A stretch of DNA of 64,000 bases from Candidatus Woesearchaeota archaeon (GTDB lineage: Archaea; Nanobdellota; Nanobdellia; SCGC-AAA011-G17; GW2011-AR20): positions 5,250-69,249 of the forward strand of contig JAGVYZ010000018.1 in NCBI GenBank assembly GCA_018303025.1, read 5' to 3'. Position numbers and translations under genes: made by a program. How positions within the stretch are numbered: position 1 is the stretch's first letter; each line of letters opens with the position of its first letter. Below the pieces are notes generated by a model. That model was not told the DNA's origin. It saw only the letters and a program-made list of their open reading frames with translations, and searched no databases. Positions 7,989-61,094 of this stretch are shown here, piece after piece.

Positions 7989-8047
7989 ACAGGTTCATTC
8001 TGATTTCTTTTAGTGCAGGTTTTCTTATAAAAGAAAAAGTGCCCTTA
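7989..8047 (+). repeat. family A repeat locus (CAGGTTCAT ... AGTGCAGGTT-hairpin-GTGCCCTTA)
   Basis: acaggttcattctgatttcttttagtgcaggttttcttataaaagaaaaagtgcccttat; the CCCTTA end contains the TAA stop of the minus gene ending at 8045. Confidence 0.7.
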
Positions 8048-9550
8048 TTTCTTTTCAACATGAGGTTTCCAAACTCGGGAAATTTTATCTTTTTTACTTT
8101 CCTCATCTAAAAACTTTTTAACTTTTTCAGGTAAGATTGCATCAAACTTGCTTCTCTCTTTAATCTTGTTTAATTTCTCTTTAAGTTCTTTTGTAACAAC
8201 ATCATAAAAATCAGGTTTAAAATATATTAATCCGTCTTTTATTCTTTGAAAAGCAGCACTTCCATCAGGAGCAAATACCATGTAGCCTCTTTTTCCTTGT
8301 AATAATTCAGAAAAAGTATCCATCCCAGAATAAACCCTTTTATAGTCAGCATAATAAACTCCGCCAGATTTAGAGCTAGGGTCTAATAACAATAATTCAT
8401 CACCTATAACTTCTAAGCATACAGAATAATGAGCTCTTTTAGCATTAGGAAACAAAACATTTTTCTTGTAATCCACAATAGCTAATCCTCCATCCTTAAG
8501 CCAGGATTTCAATTCTTCTCTTAAATTATATATTTTCTCAGAATCTATCCATACTCCCAAAACTTTCTCTTTAGTCAATTCTTTAACAGATTTAATTATA
8601 TCTTCAGGTTTAGTCCCAGCAGCCATATTTTCATCCTTTCTTACAATAGTTCCAGCTAATTTTCCTATTTCTTCTTGTGAATAATCAAATCCAAATATCT
8701 TCAAAATCATAGAAGCAGAAGCAGGTCCGCAATAGCTTGGATGTTGTGCAACATATTTTTCTTTTATTTTTTCTAAAGTATCAATCTTAGTAACAACCTT
8801 CTTGAAATAAAATCCTTTGTTAAAAACTTCTTTATGAGGCATAAAATAATATATTCCATCAGTTACATTCATAACAACTCCTTGAGTATTAATTTCAGTA
8901 ATTTTCATGAGTTTTTCATCAACTTGAATATACTCTCCTTTCCTAAAAAATCTATAATATTTCAAAAAAAATCCACTAAACAAGTTCACCATAGGATCCT
9001 TTAAACCAATAAAAATAAATAACAATAATAATATCAATACAGGATACAAAACATAACTCAAAAAATAAGTTATTGCACTTATGTCAACATTAGCAATCTG
9101 CAATGCAATCAATCCAAATGTAATGTAAAGTAATATTTTCAAAATATCCAAAAATATTTCAAGCAAATGTTCTTTTCCATATTCATTTACCAAGCTTATT
9201 AATCCAGCTCTTTTCAAAAATTGTTTAACTATAAAAAATATGAACTGAACTATTAAAACAACTAAAATAAAAACAAGTATTGAAGATAATATGACTGGTG
9301 CATATCTATAGAATCCTACAAATGTGTTAAAATTAAAATCAATCTGCAAAAAGCTTAATGCAATTATTATTGTAAATATATTCACCAGATAAACAACATA
9401 TTTTGCAATATTTGGTTTTTCAAGATTAGCACCATGTTTTTTTCTATAAACAGCCAATAATATCTTTTCAACAAGTTTTGATAAAAAGAATCCTAATGAA
9501 ATTATAATAAAGCTTACAAGTAGTTTAGAACTTATAGTCTCGAATGCCAT
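8045..9550 (-). CDS. membrane protein: MscS-like channel core fused to a C39-like (papain-fold) cysteine peptidase domain
   Basis: Multi-TM N-terminus; NLFSGFFLKYYRFFRKGEYIQV...ITEINTQGVVMNVTDGIYYFMPHKEVF resembles the MscS TM3/beta domain; C-terminal YCGPASASMILK...RAHYSV resembles a C39-like Cys/His pair. Confidence 0.55.
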   Translation of the reverse strand: MAFETISSKLLVSFIIISLGFFLSKLVEKILLAVYRKKHGANLEKPNIAKYVVYLVNIFTIIIALSFLQIDFNFNTFVGFYRYAPVILSSILVFILVVLIVQFIFFIVKQFLKRAGLISLVNEYGKEHLLEIFLDILKILLYITFGLIALQIANVDISAITYFLSYVLYPVLILLLLFIFIGLKDPMVNLFSGFFLKYYRFFRKGEYIQVDEKLMKITEINTQGVVMNVTDGIYYFMPHKEVFNKGFYFKKVVTKIDTLEKIKEKYVAQHPSYCGPASASMILKIFGFDYSQEEIGKLAGTIVRKDENMAAGTKPEDIIKSVKELTKEKVLGVWIDSEKIYNLREELKSWLKDGGLAIVDYKKNVLFPNAKRAHYSVCLEVIGDELLLLDPSSKSGGVYYADYKRVYSGMDTFSELLQGKRGYMVFAPDGSAAFQRIKDGLIYFKPDFYDVVTKELKEKLNKIKERSKFDAILPEKVKKFLDEESKKDKISRVWKPHVEKK

Positions 9551-9628: not shown

Positions 9629-9883
9629 CTAAACTTTTTTCTTTCCCTGTTTTTCTTCCTGAAGGTTCTTTCCTAAAGAAGCTTCCTCAGGAATAATAAC
9701 CCATGCAATAATATAAGCAATTAATGCAGCGCCAAAAGATGCAATTAGCAAAAATACAAAGATTACTCTAACAATAACAGGGTCTATTTCAAAATATTCA
9801 GCAATACCACCGCAAACCCCGCCAAAGATTTTCTCTTTATTGCTTCTATAAAGCCTTTTTACATCTTTTGCCATAAAAGACAA
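9629..9883 (-). CDS. PspC domain membrane protein
   Basis: LYRSNKEKIFGGVCGGIAEYFEIDPVIVRVIFV plus one TM; C-terminal tail EEASLGKNLQEEK encoded by a family B hairpin. Confidence 0.75.
   Translation of the reverse strand: MSFMAKDVKRLYRSNKEKIFGGVCGGIAEYFEIDPVIVRVIFVFLLIASFGAALIAYIIAWVIIPEEASLGKNLQEEKQGKKKV
9661..9685 (-). repeat. family B mismatch hairpin copy inside the PspC-like CDS
   Basis: Sense strand GAAGCTTCTTTAGGAAAGAACCTTC; 4 bp + C.C mismatch + 6 bp, loop AGG. Confidence 0.75.
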
Positions 9884-27253: not shown

Positions 27254-27514
27254 ATGCTTGATAATGCACCTTCTTTAGCTTCAGGTGCGTTTGTATTATC
27301 CTTAGCATTAACAATAAAACTTAATTTCCTGCAATCATTAAGAATAGTTTTTGGCTCTTTTTACGTTTTATTCTTGCCAGGTCATTTCTTAACCTATGCT
27401 TTCTTTCCAAAGAAAGATATAGATTTTATAGAAAGACTAACATTAAGCTTTGCATTATCAATAGCAATAGTTCCTTTGTTAGTCTTCTACTTAAATTTAA
27501 TAGGAATGAAATAA
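27254..27514 (+). CDS. membrane protein fragment (DUF1616-like N-terminus)
   Basis: ...FLPGHFLTYAFFPKKDIDFIERLTLSFALSIAIVPLL...; ends at TAA inside a duplicated segment; a further TM helix continues out of frame. Confidence 0.4.
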   Translation: MLDNAPSLASGAFVLSLALTIKLNFLQSLRIVFGSFYVLFLPGHFLTYAFFPKKDIDFIERLTLSFALSIAIVPLLVFYLNLIGMK

Positions 27515-37785: not shown

Positions 37786-37941
37786 ACCTTTAGCTTTTTT
37801 CCAAAATGCTTTTTCTTTAGCGTAGGTTTCTAAATGCTTCTTTTTTGGTGTAGCTTTTTTCTAATGCTTCTTTTTTAGTGTAGCTTTTTTCTAATGTTTC
37901 TTTTTTAGTGCAGGTTTTTTCTTTTCAAAGAAAAAAAGTGC
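37786..37941 (+). repeat. tandem array of about 30-bp units next to the tRNA-Leu 3' end
   Basis: Units at 37818, 37847, 37877 (AGTGTAGCTTTTTTCTAATGCTTCTTTTTT), a degenerate unit near 37786, and a last unit at 37907 that is a family A AGTGCAGGTT-hairpin-GTGC module. Confidence 0.75.
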
Positions 37942-38094
37942 TGCGGGAAACAGGGCTTTCGGAAGTTCTTTTCTTTTCAAGGAGTTCTTTTCCCTGAAGG
38001 CTTTTCTTACAAGAAAAGGCTTCGTTCGAACCTGCGTAGGCACTAAGCCACTAGGTCCTAAGCCTAGCCCGTTTGACCACTCCGGCATTCCCGC
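37942..38094 (-). tRNA. tRNA-Leu(UAG) with 69-nt T-loop intron
   Basis: Acceptor GCGGGAA/TTCCCGC+A, anticodon arm CTAGG-CTTAGGA-CCTAG, long variable arm, T stem GCAGG/CCTGT. Confidence 0.85.
37955..38023 (-). other. tRNA-Leu(UAG) intron at position 59/60 (or 60/61)
   Basis: GAAGCCTTTTCTTGTAAGAAAAGCCTTCAGGGAAAAGAACTCCTTGAAAAGAAAAGAACTTCCGAAAGC between TTCGAAC and CCTGT. Confidence 0.8.
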
Positions 38095-38140
38095 AATAAA
38101 ATTAAAAGAAATATAGGAGTATAAAAAGATAACTAATATA

Positions 38141-38166
38141 ATTTTGGAGTAGTAACAAATAGTAAA
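38141..38166 (+). promoter_or_regulatory. upstream motif ATTTTGGAGTAGTAACAAATAGTAAA followed by a TATA box
   Basis: Matches 23861-23886; followed by ATTATATAAATA about 25 nt upstream of ATG 38197. Confidence 0.5.
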
Positions 38167-38196
38167 TTATATAAATACCAAAAACCTGGCTTTTTT

Positions 38197-39300
38197 ATGA
38201 AATCAGCATACGCATTATTAGTTGCTGCTACTTTAGCATTTGGAGCTAAAACTGCAACTTCACAACCAATAGAATCATCCAGACATTATTCAATAGAGTT
38301 AGCTAATTATCTTTCTGCAAATAATTTAATTCCAGAACAAGCTATAGTAGCTTTAGATGATTCTATTCAAATTACTCATAGAAGATATTCTACAAAATTA
38401 CAAACATTGGCAGAAGATTCAGCAAGAACATTTGGTTCAATGCCAAGAACATTAGAAGAAATTAGAAGTAGAATAGATTTAATAGATAATATAAGAAGAG
38501 AAGTTGGAACTCAAATTGAAGGAAAATATGTTGAAAGATTCAGACAATTCGAAGCTGAAGAAAGAGTATTAAATACAGATGCAAGAAGAAAAGCTAGATA
38601 TTTAGCAGTAAAAGCTAGAGATGCATTAAATGATGGTTTTTTTGATAAATACTTTATAGATGGAGACGATGCAAGAGCTTATTTTTTAGAAAAAATATTA
38701 AATTACTATTCTAGTGGTCCTTACATGAGTAGCGTAGAACTTGACTCATCTTTAGTTAGAAGTTTTTTTTCAAGTCATTTTAGAGAATCAATGATTGCAT
38801 TAGTTGGTGAAGATTCAACAATTGTTAGAAGAATGCAAAGAGATATAGACCCATATACCCTAGAGAGAGTCAGGACTCAAAAACAACAAATGGGAATTAC
38901 TAATGATCCGTATAATTCCTATTCACAATACCATGATGAATTCTTGATACCTAGAAAACTTATGATATATAACAAGAGAGATAGTTTAAAAGAACAATGT
39001 GACAGAGAAATTGGGTTAGCTATTCAAAGAGCATTAATTCCTTTTGGTGGCAGTGATGAGTTTGGAGGGAGTGAAGAATGGAGAAGATTAGTTGAAGAAT
39101 ATAATAGATTAAATAGTAGACAAGATGTTTTAATGAATATATTTGCAACAGCACATGAAATTCAACCAAGGTTAACTGGTTATTATACAAATCCTATTTC
39201 TAATCCTAAAGAATTATTAAGATTAGGAAGAGAACAATTATTCCAACAAGAAGCAAGTGAAATCGAAAGATTTGAAAGATTGATAAGATTATTAAATTAA
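38197..39300 (+). CDS. secreted hypothetical protein (Arg/Glu-rich, helical)
   Basis: Signal peptide MKSAYALLVAATLAFGAKTATS; no family recognised. Confidence 0.45.
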   Translation: MKSAYALLVAATLAFGAKTATSQPIESSRHYSIELANYLSANNLIPEQAIVALDDSIQITHRRYSTKLQTLAEDSARTFGSMPRTLEEIRSRIDLIDNIRREVGTQIEGKYVERFRQFEAEERVLNTDARRKARYLAVKARDALNDGFFDKYFIDGDDARAYFLEKILNYYSSGPYMSSVELDSSLVRSFFSSHFRESMIALVGEDSTIVRRMQRDIDPYTLERVRTQKQQMGITNDPYNSYSQYHDEFLIPRKLMIYNKRDSLKEQCDREIGLAIQRALIPFGGSDEFGGSEEWRRLVEEYNRLNSRQDVLMNIFATAHEIQPRLTGYYTNPISNPKELLRLGREQLFQQEASEIERFERLIRLLN

Positions 39301-39311
39301 CACACTTAAGA

Positions 39312-39608
39312 TTATTTTGAATCAAAAATAGGACATTCTGTTTTAATTTTAGTTATATTTTCATTAATAGGTTTCATTTCATTTCTTAAGTCTCTCACAT
39401 CCCTATTGATGTGATTTATATCTTCACTAGCCCTGTCAAGTTTATGCATTGCCCATCCAGCAATATAAACAACACCCGCAAGAGGAGAGTATTCCAACCA
39501 AGCAGGTGTATTAATAAAACCAAGTAGTTTCAAAATTAGCCATAGACTAACGCCTATCAAAGAAGCCCATGCAATATAATCCCAAATAGTAGCACCTCTT
39601 TTAACCAT
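39312..39608 (-). CDS. small membrane protein
   Basis: 98 aa, two TM helices then a charged helical tail. Confidence 0.4.
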   Translation of the reverse strand: MVKRGATIWDYIAWASLIGVSLWLILKLLGFINTPAWLEYSPLAGVVYIAGWAMHKLDRASEDINHINRDVRDLRNEMKPINENITKIKTECPIFDSK

Positions 39609-39654
39609 GTAAAAATTAAGAAATCAAAACTTATAAAACTTTTCCTAAAAAAGC

Positions 39655-40443
39655 TTATTTAATTTTCTTAATTTCTTTCTCAAGTTCAGAAAGATTTTTT
39701 TCAATAGCTTTGAAAGCTTCTTTCATTAGTTCTTTTTCTTCTAATTGTCCCCAGCTTTCTAAAGTAAATATAAATTTAGTCTTGCTTCCTTCAACATTAA
39801 TGCTTCCTTCAGGTTCAGCAATTTCAGAACAAGCATTGCATAAAGTGCAATTAAGTAAATTTTTAACTTTTAATTTATCACCTTCAACTTCATAAACATT
39901 AGTAGGGCAGACTTCTTTGCAATTTTTCACATTTTCTAATTTATTTTCAACTTTTATAGAAGGATAAGCTTGGTAAAACATTAAGCCAGGTGAGAATTTA
40001 GCATGCTCTTTTCCTATTCCCAATGTAGCAACAGCTTCTATTTTCAAAGCCTGATTTTTATCATTTAATTTAGTTAAAGGCATTTTATCAAAAACAGGAA
40101 CAACTTTAGGATCATCTGATTTAAAATCAGAACTATAAACAGTGCAAGGTCCTTTAACATCAATAGTTAAATTAACTCTGCATAGTGCACATCCATTTCC
40201 CTTGCATTTGCATTCAGAAGGTAAATTATAAGCACCTAAATCAGTTTTTAATGGAACCAATCCCATTCTATGAGCTAATATTTCATCATATAAACCAGAA
40301 TTGTTTTTTACAACATTTATTTCTTTAATAGCCATTACAGGAACCTGAGTCATTACAGCTCTTCTTAATGTATTAGCAATAACATGGTCAATATTATCTA
40401 TTACAAACTTTATTTTGTTTTCAGATTTAGCTAAAATTTCCAT
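39655..40443 (-). CDS. rpoD: DNA-directed RNA polymerase subunit D (Rpo3)
   Basis: ANTLRRAVMTQVPVMAI, LAHRMGLVPL; inserted Cys clusters CKEVCPTNV / CTLCNACSE. Confidence 0.9.
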   Translation of the reverse strand: MEILAKSENKIKFVIDNIDHVIANTLRRAVMTQVPVMAIKEINVVKNNSGLYDEILAHRMGLVPLKTDLGAYNLPSECKCKGNGCALCRVNLTIDVKGPCTVYSSDFKSDDPKVVPVFDKMPLTKLNDKNQALKIEAVATLGIGKEHAKFSPGLMFYQAYPSIKVENKLENVKNCKEVCPTNVYEVEGDKLKVKNLLNCTLCNACSEIAEPEGSINVEGSKTKFIFTLESWGQLEEKELMKEAFKAIEKNLSELEKEIKKIK

Positions 40444-40530
40444 TTTTATCTTGATTAATTTATAAAATACGGTTTTTAAACCTTTGCTTCAAAAAAATAA
40501 AGGCATTTTTGGGATTAATATATAGTCTAA

Positions 40531-40605
40531 AATATATATTAAAAGGTAGGGTTACAGGACAAACACCCTCGTGGAGTATTTAAATAGAATTTACTTCTTC
40601 TATCT
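40531..40605 (+). promoter_or_regulatory. conserved upstream element U2 + TATA box
   Basis: AATATATATTAAAAGGTAGGGTTACAGGACAAACACC then TATTTAAATA; AGGACAAA ends 43 nt before the ATG. Confidence 0.7.
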
Positions 40606-41769
40606 ATGTTAAAAAATGAAGATTTAAGAAACCTAAATGAAGAAGAATTTAAGCAAGTTTATGAATATTTAAGGATAAAAACAGAGAACTTTAAGACTAT
40701 TACTCCTTCTTTAATCTTAGAAAATAACCAATATTTGTTAATATTTAGAATATGCTTGGGTTTATCTCAAAAAGAATTCGCTAAAAAATTAGGAAAAACA
40801 AAAGATTGGTGCAGACATACAGAAGCCAAAAGAAATAAAATAGAAAAAGTCAAAATAGCAGAAAGATATACTAAAAAAATAACAGAATTAATCAATAAAA
40901 AAGAGGTTAAATTAGAAAATTCTTTAATAAATTGGGAAAAATATAATTCTTTTTCTAAAGACCAAATATTACCGGAAGCTGAAATAAAATTAAAATCTTT
41001 TTCTAAATTAACAGAAGAAAACTTAAAAGATTATTTTGATTTAATCAAAAGAGAAACTAATAATTTTACTGAGATTAGCTCTGAATTATTTATAAAAATA
41101 CCACAAAGTATTCTTATTTTTAGAATTATATTAGGACTATCTTACAGAAAATTCAATCAAGTGTCTAATATAAGTGAGAAACAAATAAGAAATTATGAAC
41201 ACTTAACTAATAATATTAAACCGACCCTAGCCAAAAAAATTTCGAATATTGTTACAAGCTTATTGATAAATAAGAATATAGAATTTCAACAGTTTTTAGA
41301 GAATTATAGAATTTTAAAAGGATTTTATGGATGCAGAGATTTAAATTTCTTAGTTAATCAAGGATTGAATAGACTAGCAATGATAAAACCAACAAAATAT
41401 GAAGAAGAAATAGCTAAACTCTTAGAAAACCAAAATATAAAATTTGAAAGATATAAAATATTGAACGGAGTAAAAAGTAGGTTTAACATTGATTTTTATG
41501 TTCCTGATAAAAATATAGCAATAGAAGTTTTTTCTTATAATAATTGCAAAAAAAGAGGTAATATAAAATCAAAAGCTTGCTTAGTTGATCATAGATTTCA
41601 ATCATTAAAATCAAAAGATTCTAAACTAAGAACGATCATGTGCATAAGAATAGAAGGTAAACCAATTTTGCATAATTATGTAAAAAATTATATAGATATG
41701 GAACTTCTTAATACAGATTATTTGTTAATAAATAAAGAAGTAAATAATTTATTATATTTAATTAAATAA
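40606..41769 (+). CDS. protein with two XRE-type HTH modules and a C-terminal endonuclease-like (DUF559/Vsr-like) region
   Basis: Repeated IFRICLGLSQKEFAKKLG / IFRIILGLSYRKFNQVSN; C-terminal ...RFNIDFYVPDKNIAIEVF...; the nuclease assignment is tentative. Confidence 0.45.
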   Translation: MLKNEDLRNLNEEEFKQVYEYLRIKTENFKTITPSLILENNQYLLIFRICLGLSQKEFAKKLGKTKDWCRHTEAKRNKIEKVKIAERYTKKITELINKKEVKLENSLINWEKYNSFSKDQILPEAEIKLKSFSKLTEENLKDYFDLIKRETNNFTEISSELFIKIPQSILIFRIILGLSYRKFNQVSNISEKQIRNYEHLTNNIKPTLAKKISNIVTSLLINKNIEFQQFLENYRILKGFYGCRDLNFLVNQGLNRLAMIKPTKYEEEIAKLLENQNIKFERYKILNGVKSRFNIDFYVPDKNIAIEVFSYNNCKKRGNIKSKACLVDHRFQSLKSKDSKLRTIMCIRIEGKPILHNYVKNYIDMELLNTDYLLINKEVNNLLYLIK

Positions 41770-41788
41770 ATTTTAACTACTTACAAGT

Positions 41789-42202
41789 TTATACACGACG
41801 ACCACGTCTAAAATGTTTTTTGCGACACCCATCATGAGGGAGAGGTGTAACATCTTCTATGTTTCCAATTCTAAAACCTTCTCTTGATAATGTTCTAACA
41901 GCAGCTTGTGCACCAGGTCCTGGATTATTAGGTCCATTGTGTCCACCAGGTGCTTTTATTCTAATATGTAAAGCATTAATACCATGTTCTCTTGCTAAGT
42001 CAGCTGCTTTTTTAGAAGCCATCATAGCAGCAGTTGGACTGCTTTCAAGTCTATGAATTTTAACAACCATACCACCAGAAGTTCTTGCTATTGTCTCACT
42101 CCCAGTAATATCAGTAATATGAATAATTGTATTGTTATAACTAGAATAAATATTAGCTATTCCCCATCTTAATTCAGGTCTTTTTATAGGAGTTTCATTC
42201 AT
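41789..42202 (-). CDS. rps11: 30S ribosomal protein S11 (uS11)
   Basis: [19 protein letters not shown]...; C-terminal ...[11 protein letters not shown]. Confidence 0.92.
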
Positions 42203-42247
42203 TTTTTATTTTCCCTTGAGGCTTTTTTAAAAAGGCTCATTTCATTC
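42203..42247 (-). repeat. family B hairpin element filling the S4-S11 intercistronic spacer
   Basis: Sense strand ATGAGCCTTTTTAAAAAAGCCTCAAGGGAAAATAAAAAATG; hairpin core 42218-42238. Confidence 0.8.
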
Positions 42248-42968
42248 ATTTTTTAGCCTCTTCTTTTTTTGCAGGTTTCTCTTTTTTTGTTTTTTCTTCC
42301 TGAAGGTTCTTTTTTAAAGAAGCTTCTTTATCTTCTTTTTTTTCAAAAGTTTTCTTAGGTTTTTCTTCCTTATGGGATTCTTCTTTTTTCTCTTCCTTAT
42401 TTATTTTCCCTGAATTTTTTCTTTCTCCCTGAAGGCTCTTTCCTAAAGAGGCTTCAACTTTAGGTCTTTCAGGATGATCTTCTTTATTAAAAGCAGATTT
42501 AGGGTTATAATTAATTTTCCCTCTTTCACTTTGCATGACTAAATAAGAAGGAACAGTAACTTTCTGTCCATTTACACTAATATGTCCATGAACAATTAAT
42601 TGTCTTGCCTGATTTGCTGTTTTAGCTAAACCAGCCTTGTAAACAATTGATTGCAATCTTAAGTTCATAATATCGTTTAAAGTTAAACCTAATATAGTAT
42701 CTAAATCAGATTTTTCAGTTAATAATCCTAATTTAACTAATCTATCAACAAGTTGTTTTTTCTCTTTTTCACCTTGTTCACTATCATCATATAATAAGAC
42801 TTTAGCTTGTCCTCTTATTTTGCTTAAGAGAGAATTCATTTTCCAGATTTCATTTTTTCTCTTCAAGCCAAATTCAATAGCTAATGCTTTATCATGTTCA
42901 ATCCTTGCTCTTTGCCAAGGATGATTAGGAGTTTCATACTTTTTTCTGAATTTTCTTGCTAATCCCAT
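42246..42968 (-). CDS. rps4: 30S ribosomal protein S4 (uS4) with long Lys/Glu-rich C-terminal extension
   Basis: MGLARKFRKKYETPNHPWQ..., S4 domain LQSIVYKAGLAKTANQARQLIVHGHISVNG; about 70 extra C-terminal residues containing two hairpin repeats. Confidence 0.9.
   Translation of the reverse strand: MGLARKFRKKYETPNHPWQRARIEHDKALAIEFGLKRKNEIWKMNSLLSKIRGQAKVLLYDDSEQGEKEKKQLVDRLVKLGLLTEKSDLDTILGLTLNDIMNLRLQSIVYKAGLAKTANQARQLIVHGHISVNGQKVTVPSYLVMQSERGKINYNPKSAFNKEDHPERPKVEASLGKSLQGERKNSGKINKEEKKEESHKEEKPKKTFEKKEDKEASLKKNLQEEKTKKEKPAKKEEAKK
42302..42326 (-). repeat. family B mismatch hairpin copy inside the S4 tail
   Basis: Sense GAAGCTTCTTTAAAAAAGAACCTTC, translated EASLKKNLQ. Confidence 0.8.
42431..42455 (-). 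repeat. family B mismatch hairpin copy inside the S4 tail
   Basis: Sense GAAGCCTCTTTAGGAAAGAGCCTTC, translated EASLGKSLQ. Confidence 0.8.
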
Positions 42969-42971
42969 TTT

Positions 42972-43015
42972 GTTTTTTATTTTCCCTTGAGGCTTTTTTA
43001 AAAAGGCTCATTTTA
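42972..43015 (-). repeat. family B hairpin element filling the S13-S4 intercistronic spacer
   Basis: Sense AATGAGCCTTTTTAAAAAAGCCTCAAGGGAAAATAAAAAACAAAATG; core 42989-43009, identical to 42218-42238. Confidence 0.8.
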
Positions 43016-43519
43016 TTATTTTTTCCCCTTTCCACCTTTATCGCTGGTTGGTGCTGGTTTTGCAGCTTTTCCAGGTACAGCTTTTTTCTTTTGTACACCA
43101 ATAGACCTTCCTTTTCTGAAGTGACTCTTTGTTTTTTGTCCTCTCACTGGCTGGTCAATTGCATGTCTTAATCCTCTTCTTGACCTTACTTTTTGTAATC
43201 TTTTAATATCAAAATCTCTTGTTAATCTTACTTCAGAAGATAATACATGTAAATTTTTTCCTGTTTCAATGTCATTTCTTCTGTTTAACATCCAAGTTGG
43301 AATTTTTTCAGAAGGATTAGCTAATAATTCTTCTAATGCTTTTATTTTTTCAGGGCTTAATTCTCCTAATTTTCCATGTGGATCTAAATGCAAAACATTG
43401 CATATTGCATTAGAGAACATAAAACTAATTCCTTTGATTTTTGTCAAGCCATGAAAAACCTTTAATCTACCGTCTAAATCAGTATTTCTTATCCTTACAA
43501 TTGCTCTCATTTCACTCAT
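43016..43519 (-). CDS. rps13: 30S ribosomal protein S13 (uS13)
   Basis: MRAIVRIRNTDLDGRLKV...; the track ORF starts at a TTG, so ATG 43519 is preferred; basic C-terminal tail. Confidence 0.9.
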   Translation of the reverse strand: MSEMRAIVRIRNTDLDGRLKVFHGLTKIKGISFMFSNAICNVLHLDPHGKLGELSPEKIKALEELLANPSEKIPTWMLNRRNDIETGKNLHVLSSEVRLTRDFDIKRLQKVRSRRGLRHAIDQPVRGQKTKSHFRKGRSIGVQKKKAVPGKAAKPAPTSDKGGKGKK

Positions 43520-46156: not shown

Positions 46157-46492
46157 TTAACTAACCTTCATCTCTTTTAAGTATTTATCAACTAACTCAT
46201 CAACAAGTAAAAGATTTATATTTTCATAACCCTTGTTTATTCTTAATTTTAGCTCAGAATTAACTTTGTTTATGATTTTTCTTTTAATTTCTTCAATATC
46301 CGTTTCAGGCAAACTCCTGTTTACAGGATTTATCTTTTCCCTGTATTTTTTTGCAATTTCACTGCTATTCCTGATTTCTTTATTATAGGCTTGGGAGATC
46401 TCTTCTTTATCTATTGCCTTTTCAAGAACTTCATGAATAACTGCATTTGCAAGATTTGAGATAAATGCCTCAGTAAGTTTGTTTCTGTTCAT
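46157..46492 (-). CDS. hypothetical helical protein
   Basis: 111 aa; the start codon follows a family B spacer element. Confidence 0.4.
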   Translation of the reverse strand: MNRNKLTEAFISNLANAVIHEVLEKAIDKEEISQAYNKEIRNSSEIAKKYREKINPVNRSLPETDIEEIKRKIINKVNSELKLRINKGYENINLLLVDELVDKYLKEMKVS

Positions 46493-46540
46493 TTTTCTTT
46501 TTCCCTTGAGGCTTTTTCTTAAAAAGGCTCATTCTGTTCA
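46493..46540 (-). repeat. family B hairpin element spanning a stop codon and spacer
   Basis: Sense AATGAGCCTTTTTAAGAAAAAGCCTCAAGGGAAAAAGAAAAATG; its first part encodes ...NEPF* of the upstream gene; core 46508-46530. Confidence 0.8.
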
Positions 46541-47325
46541 TTTATTTTCTCCAAAATAGTCTTAAAGGTTTTATTATAAACTTCCTTATATTTCTTTAAA
46601 AAATCATTTTTAACCATATTTTCCTTTAATTCATTTATATTAATCTTACATAATTCTTCAATTTTTTTATTAACTATTTCTCTATTTAGTTTTTTCCCAG
46701 AAATAAATAAAAGAATAGCTACCATATTAAAAGTCAGATAATATTTTTCTTTCCCATTCAAAAGCTCAAAACCATCAATTAAAGATTTGCTTTTTAATAA
46801 ATTCAAATCAAGAAGCTTATAATTAATGTTTCTTTTAATCCTAAATATAATCCTTTCTTTAGAAACACATTTGCTTAGCATTAAACTATATAATGGGTCT
46901 ATTGATAAACCCGAAAGCAGTTCATTTTTACTAATTACAATAATATGGGTTTTTATTCCAGTTAAACTTTCTATCTTATTTTTAATTAAGCTTACATCAA
47001 TTTTTTTATCATCAATAATCAATATATCCAAGTCATTAAAACTAAATCCTTTTTCAAGAAAAGAGCCAGTAATAATTATATTCTCAGGATTAATCTCTTT
47101 ATTAACCAAATTAAAAACTTCTTCAATTATTCTTGTTTTTATTGGTTCAAGATTTTTTACATTGTAAAAATAAGGCTTAATTCTTTTTCCATCTTCCTTC
47201 TCAGAATTTAATCTTTCCAAAGGCATTATTGTAACATACTGCCCAATAGAAAAACCAGCCCTGTTTTTTGGAATGTAAACCTGGTCCATTCTGCTCCCTT
47301 TGCTTATTCTGCTTATAATTTCCAT
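46519..47325 (-). CDS. nucleotidyltransferase-domain protein with N-terminal AbrB/SpoVT-like segment
   Basis: MDQVYIPKNRAGFSIGQYVTIMPL (AbrB-like, tentative); minimal NTase motif ITGSFLEKGFSFNDLDILIIDD. Confidence 0.55.
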   Translation of the reverse strand: MEIISRISKGSRMDQVYIPKNRAGFSIGQYVTIMPLERLNSEKEDGKRIKPYFYNVKNLEPIKTRIIEEVFNLVNKEINPENIIITGSFLEKGFSFNDLDILIIDDKKIDVSLIKNKIESLTGIKTHIIVISKNELLSGLSIDPLYSLMLSKCVSKERIIFRIKRNINYKLLDLNLLKSKSLIDGFELLNGKEKYYLTFNMVAILLFISGKKLNREIVNKKIEELCKININELKENMVKNDFLKKYKEVYNKTFKTILEKINEQNEPF

Positions 47326-48114: not shown

Positions 48115-49824
48115 CTACTTTAAAATTATAACAGCTTTGCTCATATAAACACCATCATAATCATAACCTAGTTTTTTATAATAGCCCTTAACACCAATAC
48201 CAGAAATAACTAATATTTTCTTTTTGTTATGTTTCAAGCAAATCTCTTCAGCTTTTTTAACAAGCATTTTCCCAAAACCATGATGTTGTATTTCACCTTT
48301 CTCGCCTAACTTAACTGATTTCCCATAAACATGCAACTCTCTTATTATCCCAGAATCTAAAGTAATCTCTTTCCTTAAACTCTCATTAACAAATCTTAAT
48401 CTGCAAAATCCAATTATTTTGTCATTAGCATCAATAGAAATAAAAAACTCTTTCCCACAAGAAGCATTATATTCTAAAACATTTAAGTTATAATTAGAAA
48501 TATCACAATTTTTAATTTCTCTGCATCTTATGCATTTACATTTGATTTTCTTCTTTAACATTAAAGCATTAACATATTGTCTTAAGTTTGTTTTATTCAC
48601 CCCATCAATAATTCCCTTGCTGATATCTCTCTGTATTCTCATTATTCTAACATATCTTGGAACATCTCGTTTAAATTCAGAAATAACTCCAGCAGCATCA
48701 TTAAGTTTCATGGGCTTGAACTTTTTATTCTTATAATCTTCATAAAGTTCAGTTCCAGGCATAACCAAGCAAGGATATATTTTCAGCATATCAGGCCTGT
48801 ATCTTTCATCAAAAAATAATTTTTTTAGACCAGAAATATCTTTTTTGATTGTCCAAGAAGGTAAGCCAAGCATATAATGTAAATTTATCTTAAACCCTAA
48901 ATTTTTCAATCTTTTAATAGCTTCAATACTTTCTTTGTTCAAATGCCCTCTTTTTACTTTTTTTAATTGACTGTCATAAACACTTTGTATCCCTAATTCA
49001 ACTCTAGTAACCCCATATTCAAGCATTTCATTACATTGTTTTAATGAACAACAATCAGGCCTTGTTTCAATAGTTAAACCGATGCACCTTACATTAGAAC
49101 TTTCATTTTTCAGTTGTTCTTTTTCTAGATTCAAATTTTCTTTTTTTAGATGCAAAACATTTTCTTTCACTTTTTCTATTCTTTCAGGACTTCTAAAATC
49201 CATACCTAATTCAAAAAACTTATAGAACTTCTCAAAATTAATCTCTACTCTGGTTTTTCTTTCTCCATGAAAGCTCTTTTCTAAAGAGGTTTCAAAGAAT
49301 AATTCTGAAAATTTATTAAAAGCAAAATAAATATCAGCAACAAATTCATCCTTATATTGTTTAGAAAAATTAGTAAAAGTCCCGCCCATAATAATAACAT
49401 CGCATTTTCCAATATCATGATTTAATAAGACATAATTCTCTAGCCTGTTAAAAATCTGTAAAACAGCATCATATTCATTTCTTTTAGCCCTCATAGAAGC
49501 AGGCTCATTTCCAGTATAAGATTTAGGAACATTTCCAAAAAAACTTTTCAATCCTCCTGGACAATAAACACATCTTGCTTGTTCAGGACATTTTCCAGGT
49601 TTAGTCATAATAGCAATAGGAGTAACCCCAGATAAGCTTCTCATTGGTTTTATTTTAATGTCTTTTAAGTCTCTTCTTTGTTCATTATTAGCATGAGAAA
49701 ATAATCTAATCAAATCAGGTAATCCTTTCAACTTATACTTTTTAGATAATTCAGTTCTCAATCTTAAAAGTTCACTTAAACTTTTTCCTTTTGCATTCTC
49801 AAAAAACTCTTCATAAAATTCCAT
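48115..49824 (-). CDS. elp3: Elp3-type radical SAM / GNAT tRNA modification enzyme
   Basis: CPEQARCVYCPGG cluster, LTIETRPD, C-terminal GNAT (HHGFGKMLV); start moved to ATG 49824 (MEFYEEF). Confidence 0.9.
   Translation of the reverse strand: MEFYEEFFENAKGKSLSELLRLRTELSKKYKLKGLPDLIRLFSHANNEQRRDLKDIKIKPMRSLSGVTPIAIMTKPGKCPEQARCVYCPGGLKSFFGNVPKSYTGNEPASMRAKRNEYDAVLQIFNRLENYVLLNHDIGKCDVIIMGGTFTNFSKQYKDEFVADIYFAFNKFSELFFETSLEKSFHGERKTRVEINFEKFYKFFELGMDFRSPERIEKVKENVLHLKKENLNLEKEQLKNESSNVRCIGLTIETRPDCCSLKQCNEMLEYGVTRVELGIQSVYDSQLKKVKRGHLNKESIEAIKRLKNLGFKINLHYMLGLPSWTIKKDISGLKKLFFDERYRPDMLKIYPCLVMPGTELYEDYKNKKFKPMKLNDAAGVISEFKRDVPRYVRIMRIQRDISKGIIDGVNKTNLRQYVNALMLKKKIKCKCIRCREIKNCDISNYNLNVLEYNASCGKEFFISIDANDKIIGFCRLRFVNESLRKEITLDSGIIRELHVYGKSVKLGEKGEIQHHGFGKMLVKKAEEICLKHNKKKILVISGIGVKGYYKKLGYDYDGVYMSKAVIILK
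49269..49293 (-). repeat. family B mismatch hairpin copy inside elp3
   Basis: Sense GAAACCTCTTTAGAAAAGAGCTTTC, translated ETSLEKSFH; outer stem compensated (GAAA/TTTC). Confidence 0.8.
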
Positions 49825-49900
49825 AAATAAAAGAAATAAACTGAATTTAAAAAGTTTGGTTTTAACAACCTTTAAAAACAACTTTTTCAGTATATAGTTC

Positions 49901-51712
49901 ATGTTAAACTTCAAAATAATAGTTCCAGATACAAGCATTTTAATAGAAAGAGCTTTGTCAGATAAAATAAAGAAAAAAGAATTAAGAACTTCAACAATTA
50001 TAATTCATGAAGCTGTTTTAGGTGAACTAGAGCATCAGGCAAATATAGGAAAAGCAATAGGTTACTTAGGTTTGGATGAAATAAAAGAATTAAATATATT
50101 AAGCAAAACAAACAGATTCAAATTAATTTACGCAGGAAGACGTCCTTCTTCAGCAGAAATAAAACATGCTTCTTTAGGTGAAATAGATTCATTAATTAGA
50201 GACTTAGCTTATGAAAAAAGAGCAGTTTTGGTTACAGGTGATAAAGTCCAGAGCAAAGTAGCAGAAGCAAAAAACATGCTCGTTCATTATATTGAACCAG
50301 TAATCACAATAAAAAAATCTTCTTTAGACAAATATTTTGATGAAATAACAATGTCAGTCCATTTAAGAGAAAGTTCTAAACCTTATGGAAAAAAAGGCTC
50401 GCCAGGAAACTGGAAATCAGTTGAATTGTCAGAAAAAGAATTAACAAAAGCAGAAGTAGAAGAATTATCCAAATCAATAATAGAAGAAGCAAAATCAAGG
50501 CAAGATGGTTTCATTGAAATGGAAAGAAGAGGTTCAACAATAGTCCAGCTAGGAAAATACAGAATAGTAATTACAAGACCTCCTTTCAGTGATGCATGGG
50601 AAATAACAGCAGTTCATCCAATAGTAAAATTAAACCTAGAAGATTATCATTTATCAGATAAATTATTTCAAAGAATTTCAGAACAGGCAGAAGGAGTTTT
50701 AATAGCAGGTGCACCAGGTGAAGGTAAAAGTACATGTGCAGCAGCAATAGCAGAATATTATGCTTCATTAAATAAAAATGTAAAAACAGTAGAATCACCT
50801 AGAGATTTAGACTTAAGCAATAAAATAACTCAATATTCATTAACCCAAGGGTCTATTCAGGAAATACATGATGTTCTATTATTATGCAGGCCAGATTATA
50901 CTATTTTTGATGAAATGAGAAACTTAGAAGATTTCAGGTTATTTACTGATTTGAGATTAGCTGGAATTGGTTTCTTAGGTGTAGTTCATGGAACAAATCC
51001 AATAGATGCAATTCAAAGATTCATAGGAAAAACAGAATTAGGTATTATTCCGCATATTATTGATACAGTCATTTTCATAAAAGCAGGACAAGTAAATAAA
51101 GTTTTAAGTTTAAACATGACAGTCAAAGTTCCTTCTGGAATGACAGAAGAAGATTTATCACGTCCAGTAATAGAAATAAAAGATTTTGAAACAAATAACT
51201 TAGAATATGAAATGTATTCTTATGGTGAAGAAACAGTTGTTATTCCAATTAAAAAAACAATTAAAAAATCAGGAGCGCATAATTTAGCTTCAAAACAAAT
51301 AGAATCAAGATTAAGAAAAATTTTCCCAGAATTAAAAGCAGAAGTTATTTCAGACCATAAAGCAATAGTTTACTTGCCTGAAAAAGACATTCCAGCAATA
51401 ATAGGAAAGCAAGGAAAAAATATTTCTCAAATAGAATCAGAATTAGGAATAAAAATTGAAGTGTCTTCTTATAAAAATAATTTAACAAAACAAGAGATAG
51501 AATATAGTTTAGATGAATCTCATAAATATATAACTTTAATTGTAAACAAAAATTTCATAGGAAGACATGTTGATGCTTATTATGATGATGAATATTTGTT
51601 TGGTGCAAATGTAGGTAAAAAAGGAGACATAAATTTGCACAAGAAAAGTGAAATAGGCAAAAAAATACTTTCTATATTCGATAAAAAGCATAAAATAAAG
51701 CTTTTAATATGA
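49901..51712 (+). CDS. PIN domain - PilT-like ATPase - KH domain protein
   Basis: N-terminal IVPDTSILIE PIN start, Walker A GAPGEGKST, C-terminal IPAIIGKQGKNISQIE KH motif. Confidence 0.8.
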   Translation: MLNFKIIVPDTSILIERALSDKIKKKELRTSTIIIHEAVLGELEHQANIGKAIGYLGLDEIKELNILSKTNRFKLIYAGRRPSSAEIKHASLGEIDSLIRDLAYEKRAVLVTGDKVQSKVAEAKNMLVHYIEPVITIKKSSLDKYFDEITMSVHLRESSKPYGKKGSPGNWKSVELSEKELTKAEVEELSKSIIEEAKSRQDGFIEMERRGSTIVQLGKYRIVITRPPFSDAWEITAVHPIVKLNLEDYHLSDKLFQRISEQAEGVLIAGAPGEGKSTCAAAIAEYYASLNKNVKTVESPRDLDLSNKITQYSLTQGSIQEIHDVLLLCRPDYTIFDEMRNLEDFRLFTDLRLAGIGFLGVVHGTNPIDAIQRFIGKTELGIIPHIIDTVIFIKAGQVNKVLSLNMTVKVPSGMTEEDLSRPVIEIKDFETNNLEYEMYSYGEETVVIPIKKTIKKSGAHNLASKQIESRLRKIFPELKAEVISDHKAIVYLPEKDIPAIIGKQGKNISQIESELGIKIEVSSYKNNLTKQEIEYSLDESHKYITLIVNKNFIGRHVDAYYDDEYLFGANVGKKGDINLHKKSEIGKKILSIFDKKHKIKLLI

Positions 51713-57039: not shown

Positions 57040-57203
57040 TGCGCGAACGGGGACTTTCGCAGCTTTGTTCTCTTTTCCGAAGCTTTCTTCATCTTTGTTC
57101 TTTCTTTTGATGAAGATTTTCTTTCTTCAAAGAAAGAAAAGCTCATTCGAACCCCGGTCCCAAGCTTGGAAGGCTCGGATTCTAACCACTAAACCATTCG
57201 CGC
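57040..57203 (-). tRNA. tRNA-Gly(UCC) with 92-nt T-loop intron
   Basis: Acceptor GCGCGAA/TTCGCGC+A, anticodon arm CGAGC-CTTCCAA-GCTTG, T stem CGGGG/CCCCG split after TTCGAAT. Confidence 0.85.
57053..57144 (-). other. tRNA-Gly(UCC) intron at position 59/60 (or 60/61)
   Basis: GAGCTTTTCTTTCTTTGAAGAAAGAAAATCTTCATC...GCTGCGAAAGT; begins and ends like the tRNA-Leu intron. Confidence 0.8.
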
Positions 57204-60835: not shown

Positions 60836-60963
60836 GCGGGAATGCCGGAGTGGTCAAACGGGGTAGACTCAAAATCTACTGGCTTAGTGCCTACGCAGGT
60901 TCGAACGAAGCCTTTTCTTGTAAGAAAAGCCTTCAGGGAAAAGAACTCCTTGAAAAGAAAAGA
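60836..60963 (+). tRNA. tRNA-Leu(CAA) 5' exon (60836-60906) plus intron start; 3' exon not found in the window
   Basis: 71-nt exon identical to tRNA-Leu(UAG) except for a fully compensated anticodon arm (GTAGA-CTCAAAA-TCTAC); the next 57 nt are identical to the Leu(UAG) intron, then diverge; no CCTGYTTCCCGCA downstream. Confidence 0.6.
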
Positions 60964-61094
60964 TTTTCTGGACCTAAGAAAACAAAAGTTTTCTTTGGAA
61001 AAAGAAGCATTGAATTCAACTTAATTCAGGTTTAGCAATAATTATAAATTCAAAAAATATTAAATTAAAGAAGGTGAAAAAAAGGGTAAATTCT

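Follow-up and report, generated by a model that had tools for sequence, protein, structure and literature searches.

A hairpin element of DPANN archaea, probably mobile, that links tRNA introns and trailers with insertions into mRNAs and proteins

Small palindromic repeats inside genes are reportedly known from Rickettsia, where the Rickettsia palindromic elements (RPEs) attributed to Ogata and co-workers in 2000 are said to be small palindromes carried in frame in protein genes and also in RNA genes. We analyzed a stretch of 64,000 nucleotides of a Candidatus Woesearchaeota archaeon (GenBank assembly GCA_018303025.1, contig JAGVYZ010000018.1, positions 5,250 to 69,249 of the forward strand; hereafter the window), which carries many copies of a hairpin element with a purine tail. 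Like an RPE, this element is an in-frame palindromic repeat that is tolerated as an additional peptide segment. RPEs differ in being bacterial and 100–150 bp long, and no intron link, A-rich tail, long variable duplications or mirror tail has been reported for them. We lean, by a small degree, towards regarding the element as a very small non-autonomous mobile family of DPANN archaea, about 28–45 nt in length. It is apparently an undescribed small mobile element of these organisms, and literature searches aimed at one turned up no report of such an element. Through it, tRNA introns and trailers are linked with insertions that lie in mRNAs and proteins.

Two other systems resemble the element. 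In the Thermoproteales, related intron sequences are present in many tRNA genes, at non-canonical positions too, and have been read as gains by transposition (Fujishima et al. 2010, Mol Biol Evol 27:2233, as cited in PMC10714607). The element shares with these introns, as they appear in the citing account, the occupation of several genes, the non-canonical tRNA positions and removal at a bulge-helix-bulge site. In that account the introns pass from tRNA gene to tRNA gene, whereas the element is also found in trailers, spacers, gene starts and open reading frames (ORFs); moreover, it leaves long target duplications and corresponds only to the 5' module of an intron. Short interspersed nuclear elements (SINEs) are likewise short, non-autonomous and tRNA-linked, with an exact 5' end, an A-rich 3' tail and variable duplications that begin with an A-run. 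The element is about ten times shorter, its proposed source is a tRNA intron or trailer and not the tRNA body, and the partner reverse transcriptase or endonuclease of a SINE was not found here among the 20 largest ORFs of the window or in a reverse-transcriptase motif screen of 591 kb. No SINE-like retroposon of bacteria or archaea is known to us. The element addresses the open question of how archaea gain tRNA introns and how these come to occupy many non-canonical positions. Since one element is seen in the role of an intron module and also as a newly inserted copy with duplications, a mobile-element origin of introns becomes directly testable.

The unit consists, in order, of a 4-bp outer stem, a C.C mismatch, an inner stem of 5–10 bp (pyrimidine arm first, purine arm second), the 3' strand of the outer stem, a linker of 3 nt (AGG, ATG or ACG) and a purine tail with a few A-rich bases after it. 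Other subtypes have C.U or a small internal loop where the main subtype has C.C. An earlier reading of the window from its letters alone (the sequence-only reading) had listed ten copies of such a hairpin; all ten exist at the positions it gave, and their sequences were verified. An independent architecture scan of the window (outer stem of at least 3 bp, C.C mismatch, inner stem of at least 5 bp) recovered the nine clean copies with the fixed mismatch, eight on the minus strand and one on the plus strand, each oriented as the sense of its own host gene, as had been claimed. A degenerate pattern covering five of the nine matched five times in the window and never in 100 dinucleotide shuffles. 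Because MAFFT put loop gaps in the wrong places, a covariance model was trained on five equal-length copies. It scores all nine clean copies at 33–66 bits, and the next-best match in the window reaches 20 bits. The tenth copy, in tRNA-Gly, had been called looser and was missed by this model. It nevertheless belongs to the family, with C.U in place of C.C and agreement with the tail rule described below at 9 of 9 positions (arm GAAAGAAAA, tail AAAAGAAAG). No Rfam family matches the element: gathering scores in the window were reached only by tRNA-Arg and 5S rRNA, and a permissive Rfam scan of positions 37850–43100 returned nothing beyond sub-threshold tRNA.

The family is present in many DPANN metagenome genomes. 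In the representative genomes of GTDB, a pattern fixing purine and pyrimidine classes only gave 14 matches, 12 of them in Woesearchaeota, Nanoarchaeota or Aenigmatarchaeota, one in a "Thermococci" bin and one in a Treponema bin. All 14 have full stem complementarity, although the pattern did not demand pairing. Scanning metagenomes with a pattern that placed no demand on the tail gave 62 loci, and here too the true matches are all fully complementary. The covariance model, run on the collected locus DNA, found 79 copies, 54 of them distinct. Nine outer stems are represented (GAAG/CTTC, TGAG/CTCA, GAAA/TTTC, TAAA/TTTA, TGAA/TTCA, TAAG/CTTA, CAAG/CTTG, CAAA/TTTG and GAAC/GTTC), and the C.C mismatch is kept in 52 of the 54 distinct copies. 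In the alignment of these 54, 99.1% of stem cells are paired. Two-sided changes occur at 8 of the 10 stem pairs, in 70 cells, a result reached by none of 500 shuffles; slid controls collapse. A scan of viral contigs gave a single match, GC-rich and judged to be chance. The covariance-model scan that the sequence-only reading had called for yielded further copies with covarying stems. The strong stem covariation also bears out its view that the structure is selected and not low complexity. The earlier observation is real and more interesting than first described; the mirror tail, the target duplications and the distal arm of the intron splice sites, all set out below, had escaped the sequence-only reading.

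These results bear on the simplest alternative, that there is no discrete feature here at all and that the hairpins are chance palindromes in purine-rich DNA of 28% G+C, or a peptide repeat selected at the protein level. The composition of the window (28% G+C, purine-rich coding strands) and of the genome (AT-rich) would suit this explanation, as would hairpin energies no better than those of shuffles and the generally Lys/Glu-rich tails of DPANN S4 proteins. Against this stand the pattern counts (5 against 0 in 100 shuffles), the compensatory changes at 8 of 10 pairs, the presence of the element in non-coding spacers, tRNA introns and several phyla, and the lack of the mirror tail in chance matches to the pattern. 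We find the explanation hardly credible.

The mirror tail is the second signature of the family. The purine tail is the mirror image of the 3' purine arm and changes along with it. With the hairpin numbered 1–25 and the tail from 26, positions 29 onward read the purine arm backwards, as in the following pairs.

Purine arm AAAGAG, tail GAGAAA
Purine arm AAAGAA, tail AAGAAA
Purine arm AAAAAG, tail GAAAAA
Purine arm AAGAAA, tail AAAGAA
Purine arm AAGAAAAG, tail GAAAAGAA
Purine arm AAAAGAAAG, tail GAAAGAAAA

Among the 54 distinct copies, tail and arm match in mirror order at 301 of 317 positions at shift 0. At G-bearing positions, 51 of 61 agree at this shift, compared to 0–40 of 86–181 at other shifts. 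When tails were permuted among the 38 distinct types, the maximum in 20,000 permutations was 194 and the observed value is 207 (p<5e-5). In all collected DNA, an exact mirror 8 nt past the arm is present in 38 of 275 informative pyrimidine/purine hairpins, compared to 0–8 cases at other gaps and one in the direct-repeat control. Metagenome matches with perfect stems nearly all carry the mirror tail, whereas chance matches with imperfect stems lack it; the rule also holds for the other subtypes and for copies that came to light through the covariance model alone. The linker is in register as well. G28 is invariant and aligns with the C5.C21 mismatch, and position 27 tracks the level-4 pair (G-C with G in 34, A-T with T in 16, C-G with C in 2, exceptions in 2). 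Three positions thus covary at each level, C-G with G and T-A with A (counts, for example, 37 and 12, with 5 others). Since each of the four inner-stem types is found with GAAG..AGG as well as with GAAA..ATG, the three-way changes have more than one origin, and neither descent of subfamilies nor recombination, in simple form, accounts for them.

On this analysis a mirror repeat could not be templated by a polymerase, and a triple helix would be the sole base-specific explanation that we found. The three-way register is the one to be expected of an intramolecular triple helix in single-stranded nucleic acid. Judged from the sequences, the predicted triplex could be R.R-Y (A.A-T, G.G-C) on the sense strand, or could instead be Y.R-Y (T.A-T, C+.G-C) on the opposite strand; wobble counts (G.T 5, A.C 2) do not indicate which strand folds. 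The covariation predicts a natural triple helix of an unusual type. The ENE/MALAT1 triple helices likewise combine a stem with a downstream A-rich tract in one strand and have three covarying positions per level, and RNAs of transposable elements are known to contain ENE-like triplexes; H-DNA classically requires a homopurine mirror repeat (PMC7583470, PMC12501189). However, an ENE clamps its A-tract between two U-rich strands (U.A-U), whereas the element offers one pyrimidine and two purine strands. In place of a U-rich internal loop on both strands it has a single clamp-like level, C.C with G, and the rest of the stem is Watson-Crick. We rejected the idea that the tail derives from the target, with the triplex guiding target choice, because the tails of the window and of a relative (locus L025; L numbers denote loci in the collected DNA) differ at a shared target, each matching its own stem, and because the tail lies between the hairpin and the second repeat.

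Two sequences depart from the standard unit. One of the S4-tail copies, in L025 (5044–5080), lacks a C, so that its hairpin is perfect over 10 bp (GAAGCTTTTT TAG AAAAAGCTTC). The mirror relation between its tail and arm is gone, and this is apparently a decaying copy. Downstream of tRNA-Leu(UAG) in the window (37860–37925, minus strand) lies a tandem unit, CT[GA]CACTAAAAAAGAA[AG]CATTAGA; three such tandem units (CCTAC[GA]CTAAAAGAAAG...) occur in L067 (120–240). It looks as if a single hairpin had several tails.

Among distinct copies sampled regardless of context, about one in five lies in a tRNA gene, which upholds the relation to tRNA introns proposed in the sequence-only reading. The intron copies of the window are as follows.

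37956..38024, minus strand: T-loop intron of tRNA-Leu(UAG), gene 37942-38094, with the module at 37985-38023, arms CTTTTCTT/AAGAAAAG and tail GAAAAGAA
60907..60945, plus strand: tRNA-Leu(CAA) module, the module of the tRNA-Leu(UAG) intron, directly after the T-loop of the 5' part at 60836-60905
57100..57144, minus strand: module of the tRNA-Gly(UCC) T-loop intron, gene 57040-57203; second subtype, one base inside the intron, with C.U, an ATC linker and GAAAGAAAA/AAAAGAAAG

The copy starts at the 5' end of a T-loop intron, or one base inside it, in the window genes for tRNA-Leu (twice) and tRNA-Gly and in L001, L008, L013, L067 and L083; in the tRNA-Leu(UAG) intron, one base (C, 38024) precedes the module. 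L083 also has a copy at the canonical intron position, and L005 one at another non-canonical position. Three further copies start at the first base of a 3' trailer: that of tRNA-Leu(UAG) in the window, its ortholog in L067, where the outer stem is compensated (GTA/TAC, compared to GCA/TGC in the window), and L061, directly after an intact tRNA-Ser.

The two complete introns at T-loop position 59/60 are 69 nt (tRNA-Leu(UAG)) and about 92 nt (tRNA-Gly(UCC)) long and have good bulge-helix-bulge sites. In tRNA-Leu(UAG), a distal 3' arm, AAGAAAAGAACTTC, separate from the proximal arm of the hairpin, pairs with the 5' strand of the element to give GCAGG TTCG [AAC] GAAG ... CTTC CGAA [AGC] CCTGT. The minimum-energy fold of the whole precursor adopts this site; therefore, the C.C hairpin is an alternative conformer in introns. 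C5 is unpaired in both conformers. The sites of tRNA-Gly and of the T-loop introns of L001, L013, L067 and L083 were read by hand. As a systematic feature, two 3-nt bulges around a 4-bp helix, with flanking helices, are confined to the tRNA copies. ARAGORN, and Rfam at gathering score, miss all three tRNA genes that carry the window copies, because the introns sit in the T-loop; by hand, these genes read as sound. Standard finders thus overlook tRNA genes that carry the element, and genomes of this kind will be credited with too few tRNAs. The tRNA-Leu(CAA) gene (60836–60980, plus strand) is complete in its 5' part to the T-loop and continues for about 55 nt with the intron-like sequence seen in tRNA-Leu(UAG). 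Its 3' exon (CCTGTTTCCCGCA) was not found anywhere on that strand of the window, and the locus is either a split tRNA half or a truncated duplicate.

The remaining copies listed in the sequence-only reading lie between cistrons or inside ORFs.

42209..42239, minus strand: S4/S11 spacer copy, TGAG-C-CTTTTT-A-AAAAAG-C-CTCA, then AGG and GAAAA
42980..43010, minus strand: S13/S4 spacer copy, identical to the S4/S11 copy; flanking repeat approximate only (GGGGAAAAAATAATAAAAT and GGGAAAATAAAAAACAAAAT)
46495..46531, minus strand: copy in the spacer between a 268-aa ORF and a 111-aa gene beginning MNRNKL; 12-nt duplication AAATGAACAGAA at 46532-46543 and 46483-46494
42421..42455, minus strand: copy in the Lys/Glu-rich C-terminal tail of S4, CTCTTT/AAAGAG with tail GAGAAA; reads EASLGKSLQGE
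42293..42326, minus strand: second copy in the S4 tail, TTCTTT/AAAGAA with tail AAGAAA; reads EASLKKNLQEE
49259..49293, minus strand: Elp3 copy with a GAAA/TTTC outer stem, ATG linker and tail GAGAAA; reads ETSLEKSFHGE
9652..9685, minus strand: copy in a C-terminal extension of an 84-aa PspC-like membrane protein; reads EASLGKNLQEE, with a partial repeat after it

We consider it very probable that the element is a mobile insertion element, a possibility raised in the sequence-only reading that now gains from empty orthologous sites, independent insertions at the same site, nested copies and target duplications. In L025, whose S4 is 90% identical to that of the window, the S13-S4 gap is 5 nt and S4 overlaps S11; neither junction carries the element. 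The S13/S4 spacer of L028 is likewise 5 nt long and element-free. The S4/S11 junction holds a C.C copy in the window and a C.U copy, of the tRNA-Gly subtype, in L028. One S4-tail site is occupied by CTCTTT/AAAGAG in the window and by CTTTTC/GAAAAG (tail GAAAAT) in L028, and is without a copy in L025. The start of the orthologous MNRNKL gene carries a TGAG/CTTTTT copy with AAATGAACAGAA repeats in the window and a GAAG/TTTCTT copy with AAAAAATGAA repeats in L025. One copy lies inside the loop of another in L046 and L064, and in L064 the element and its flanking repeat are amplified in tandem.

Flanking direct repeats of at least 11 nt are present at 7 of 52 copies, compared to 10 of 2000 random controls; additional duplications of 19 nt (L067) and 10 nt (L025) were found. 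At the S4/S11 copy, the 16-nt duplication TAAAAAATGAATGAAA (42240-42255 and 42193-42208) comprises the S4 stop with a duplicated S11 start upstream and the working S11 start downstream. New copies arise at staggered breaks in the target, and the duplications that they leave range from 10 to about 25 nt. In copies that have them, the 5' junction of the insert always coincides with the first outer-stem base, the 3' boundary differs from copy to copy within the A-rich tail (inserts of 28–41 nt), and the second repeat opens with an A-run directly after that tail. Every duplication contains the ATG of the downstream gene, meaning that insertion took place a few codons into the gene and the start was rebuilt; that duplications always include a start codon is probably a survivor effect. 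All copies whose orientation can be judged are sense to the local gene.

Two other explanations of individual observations were rejected. An apparent disruption of S4 in L016 is a scaffold gap, and ectopic integration of CRISPR spacers does not fit an insert of one conserved sequence with duplications that vary from 10 to 25 bp. In L025 (1100–1190), the copy before the MNRNKL gene has a 42-nt insertion between the mismatch C and the outer 3' strand. This insertion contains a perfect hairpin of 8 bp that differs from that of the element (AGAGGAAC AAG TTCCTCT), and it forms part of the translated upstream ORF.

Within proteins, the four ORF copies share a single reading frame, which gives E-[AT]-S-L-x-K-[NS]-[LF]-[QH]-[GE]-E, in agreement with the shared peptide given in the sequence-only reading. 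The S4 and PspC-like copies form C-terminal extensions. Compared to the solved Elp3 of Methanocaldococcus infernus (6IA8), the window Elp3 (48115-49938, minus strand) has a 57-residue insertion (KFSELFFETSLEKSFHGERK...HLK) in a variable loop between segments of the radical-SAM core; the copy lies near the start of this insertion and accounts for its first ~20 residues only. The in-frame colonization thus extends to essential genes (S4, Elp3) in very small genomes, and the element lengthens ORF calls in DPANN metagenome genomes. In the spacer before the MNRNKL gene, the hairpin loop holds the stop codon of the upstream 268-aa ORF.

An archaeal precedent for a tRNA-type intron within a protein-coding gene is the bulge-helix-bulge intron of cbf5 mRNA (PMC2738675). 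The spacer and ORF copies differ from it in having no systematic bulge-helix-bulge site and in keeping the reading frame open. A search that admitted G.U pairs and bulges of three sizes found a suitably placed 4-bp helix around 5 of 53 such copies, which is about the chance frequency. As these sites are not systematic, the spacer and ORF copies are most likely unspliced, and judging from sequence they most likely stay in the RNA and are translated. The PspC-like copy (9661–9700, minus strand) is alone in having flanks that could form a 4-bp helix with 3-nt bulges, TCCT [GAG] GAAG...CTTC AGGA [AGA]; over all copies, such cases are roughly as frequent as expected by chance.

At 42193–42255 (minus strand), the S4 TGA overlaps the ATG of a 16-codon mini-ORF that crosses the element, and the stop of the mini-ORF overlaps the S11 ATG. 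The ATGA stop-start overlaps, as in translational coupling, are therefore preserved across the insert. In L004/L030, L012/L057, L084 and L011/L058, copies lie in or just before the N-termini of small proteins that begin with ...KRGQ or KKGQ and then a hydrophobic stretch. These N-termini look like archaeal class III (pilin-like) signal peptides, and cut-off of the N-terminal extension at such peptides may explain why insertions are tolerated there. The S4 proteins of DPANN archaea commonly have Lys/Glu-rich C-terminal tails of 30–110 residues, which are absent from the S4 of Methanocaldococcus (183 aa). The notion that these tails are generally built from the element is unsupported, as the element peptide was seen in few of about 65 homologs. 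The best named homologs of the window S4 are from Nanoarchaeota and Woesearchaeota genomes, at ~55% identity, which places the organism among the DPANN archaea.

The positions of these copies might also suggest a module that the host selects for regulation at gene boundaries, not a selfish one, with the ORF and intron copies as by-products. The T-run, TATA-like loop, AGG(G) linker and A-rich tail would then act as a terminator, a promoter, a ribosome-binding site or a signal for RNA stability or processing. Many copies do lie 0–20 nt before start codons or between cistrons, the spacer loop TTTTTA(N)AAAAA stands ~26–40 nt before the ATG, as an archaeal promoter would, and AGGG lies ~10 nt before the restored ATG, at the place of the original GAGG or GGAG; the perfect stems suggest continuing constraint. 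However, a close relative lacks the element at S13/S4 and S4/S11 and has the genes coupled more tightly, the loops of ORF copies are unlike a TATA box (TTTAGGAAA), and the same module is found inside tRNA introns and protein-coding sequence. Furthermore, promoter, terminator and ribosome-binding roles predict neither stem covariation nor a mirror tail at fixed spacing. We regard a regulatory module as quite improbable. The recruited processing or protein-binding site that the sequence-only reading offered as an alternative to mobility gains no positive support from the spacer and ORF copies, with their lack of systematic bulge-helix-bulge sites, or from the element-free S13/S4 and S4/S11 spacers of a close relative.

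Returning to mobility, the form of the insertions bears on how copies might be made. The A-rich 3' tail, the variable duplications initiated by an A-run and the exact 5' end are all features of SINEs. We infer target-primed copying of RNA, as in LINEs and SINEs, because the ends are asymmetric, the duplications are variable and A-initiated, and the tail is A-rich; this RNA copying route is put forward tentatively, with somewhat less than even confidence. The source copies would probably be those attached to tRNA genes, where the splicing endonuclease or RNase Z would free an RNA starting at, or within one base of, the first base of the element. The exact 5' end would fit an RNA end made by RNase Z, and that of the splicing endonuclease to within one base. 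The freed RNA would be copied into A-rich target DNA by a reverse transcriptase through target-primed synthesis, as in SINEs. Sense orientation would follow, because A-rich targets sit on purine-rich coding strands. The hairpin and mirror tail would form an intramolecular triple helix required for the copying cycle. Insertion into a tRNA gene would create a new bulge-helix-bulge intron, and insertion into other genes would add peptide segments and rebuild gene starts.

Copies would survive where they are harmless: in tRNA genes, where a distal arm completing the bulge-helix-bulge site would let the insert be spliced out; just inside gene starts, where the target duplication would restore the start codon; between cistrons; and in protein tails or loops, where the one open frame would give a hydrophilic peptide. 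Taken in all its parts (a DPANN SINE-like retroposon with tRNA-intron and trailer sources, copied by reverse transcriptase, dependent on the triplex and making new introns and peptide segments), the scheme is doubtful. If the copying route were true, this would be the first SINE-like retroposon in prokaryotes known to us. Reverse transcriptases are known in these lineages (PMC4372165, PMC5006420).

An unlikely alternative is that the element is the relic of a DNA transposon, similar to a MITE (a miniature transposable element with inverted repeats) or a repetitive extragenic palindromic (REP) sequence, and that a trans-acting transposase, for example of the HUH/Y1 kind of IS200/IS605 or REP-associated tyrosine transposases (RAYT), moves the hairpin as a single strand. 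The mismatch and the triplex-forming tail would then be recognition features of the enzyme. REP/RAYT and IS200/IS605 elements do share with the element an imperfect hairpin, a conserved mismatch, action in single-stranded form, multiple copies and specific orientation, and the ends of IS200/IS605 and REP sequences resemble an imperfect hairpin with one fixed mismatch. A purine-motif triplex is favored in DNA over RNA, according to the account discussed below, the copies are multiple and nested and differ in presence and absence, and the reverse transcriptase that RNA copying needs was not found in the searches described above.

In contrast, REP and IS200/IS605 leave no target duplications, are extragenic and have a conserved tetranucleotide guide or cleavage site, of which none matches here; DDE transposases leave duplications of fixed length. 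Here, the mismatch hairpin is accompanied by duplications of 10–25 bp with an A-run start beside an A-rich tail, and by copies in ORFs and tRNA genes. The ends are asymmetric (5' hairpin, 3' purine tail), unlike those of a MITE, and an exact 5' end with a variable 3' end is unlike two transposase-bound ends. Transposition of DNA would also leave unexplained why the element starts at RNA processing sites of tRNA genes, and no transposase was found among the 20 largest window ORFs.

A number of observations weigh against a mobile family copied through RNA. No reverse transcriptase, endonuclease or transposase was found by Pfam among the 20 largest window ORFs, nor a reverse transcriptase in a rough motif screen of the 591 kb of collected DNA. 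The inserted copies are not whole introns, and intron RNA of the GAAG type would begin one base upstream. Clear target duplications are present at only about 8–10 of the 54 distinct copies, all with a start codon, and selection may have made these cases unrepresentative. All 22 contigs of the window's species have the S4 and S11 copies, with no polymorphism seen within the population; the exact S11 protein is encoded on at least 22 groundwater metagenome contigs with the same gene order. The stems of ORF copies are still perfect, which could mean that they have a local function and are not dead copies. As for the covariation, the search patterns came from the window itself and the structure guided the alignment; the counts are also inflated by descent within subfamilies, as mobile copies share ancestry. 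Taken by itself, the hairpin gains no stability over shuffled sequence (z of -0.03 to -1.0); because these energies are not significant, we dropped folding energy as evidence and the case rests on covariation. Lastly, an all-RNA triplex of the purine motif is considered unfavorable (Semerad and Maher 1994, in the form cited in PMC7583470), and the 3-nt linker leaves no space for a turn while the outer stem is closed. For these two reasons, the triplex may be one of DNA, of the opposite strand or of another conformer.

The tail rule adds four window members that the covariance model missed, namely the tRNA-Gly intron copy and three with other outer stems, which are additional to the ten.

37897..37941, minus strand: tRNA-Leu(UAG)-trailer copy of a third subtype, from the first trailer base; outer stem GCA/TGC, small internal loop, arm AAAGAAAAAA, tail AAAAAAGAAA, in agreement with the tail rule at 10 of 10 positions; tail-like units repeated after it
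8005..8042, minus strand: third-subtype copy two bases past the stop codon of ORF 8045-9550; arm AAGAAAA, tail AAAAGAA
18051..18092, minus strand: hairpin with mirror tail, TTTTTCTTTT/AAAAGAAAAA, tail AAAAAGAAAA, outer stem AGG/CCT; membership tentative

In addition, a palindrome (CTTTCTTTGGAAAGAAAG) at 27385–27435 has a partial mirror tail on both strands and is not clearly a member of the family. The housekeeping genes of the window comprise an S13-S4-S11-RpoD cluster, L13/S9, Elp3, LeuRS, TyrRS or TrpRS, and 5S rRNA. At 49901–51712 (plus strand) lies a 603-aa protein with a PIN domain, a secretion-type ATPase and a KH domain, the ORF of which runs opposite to the long ORF call for Elp3 and overlaps its 5' end.

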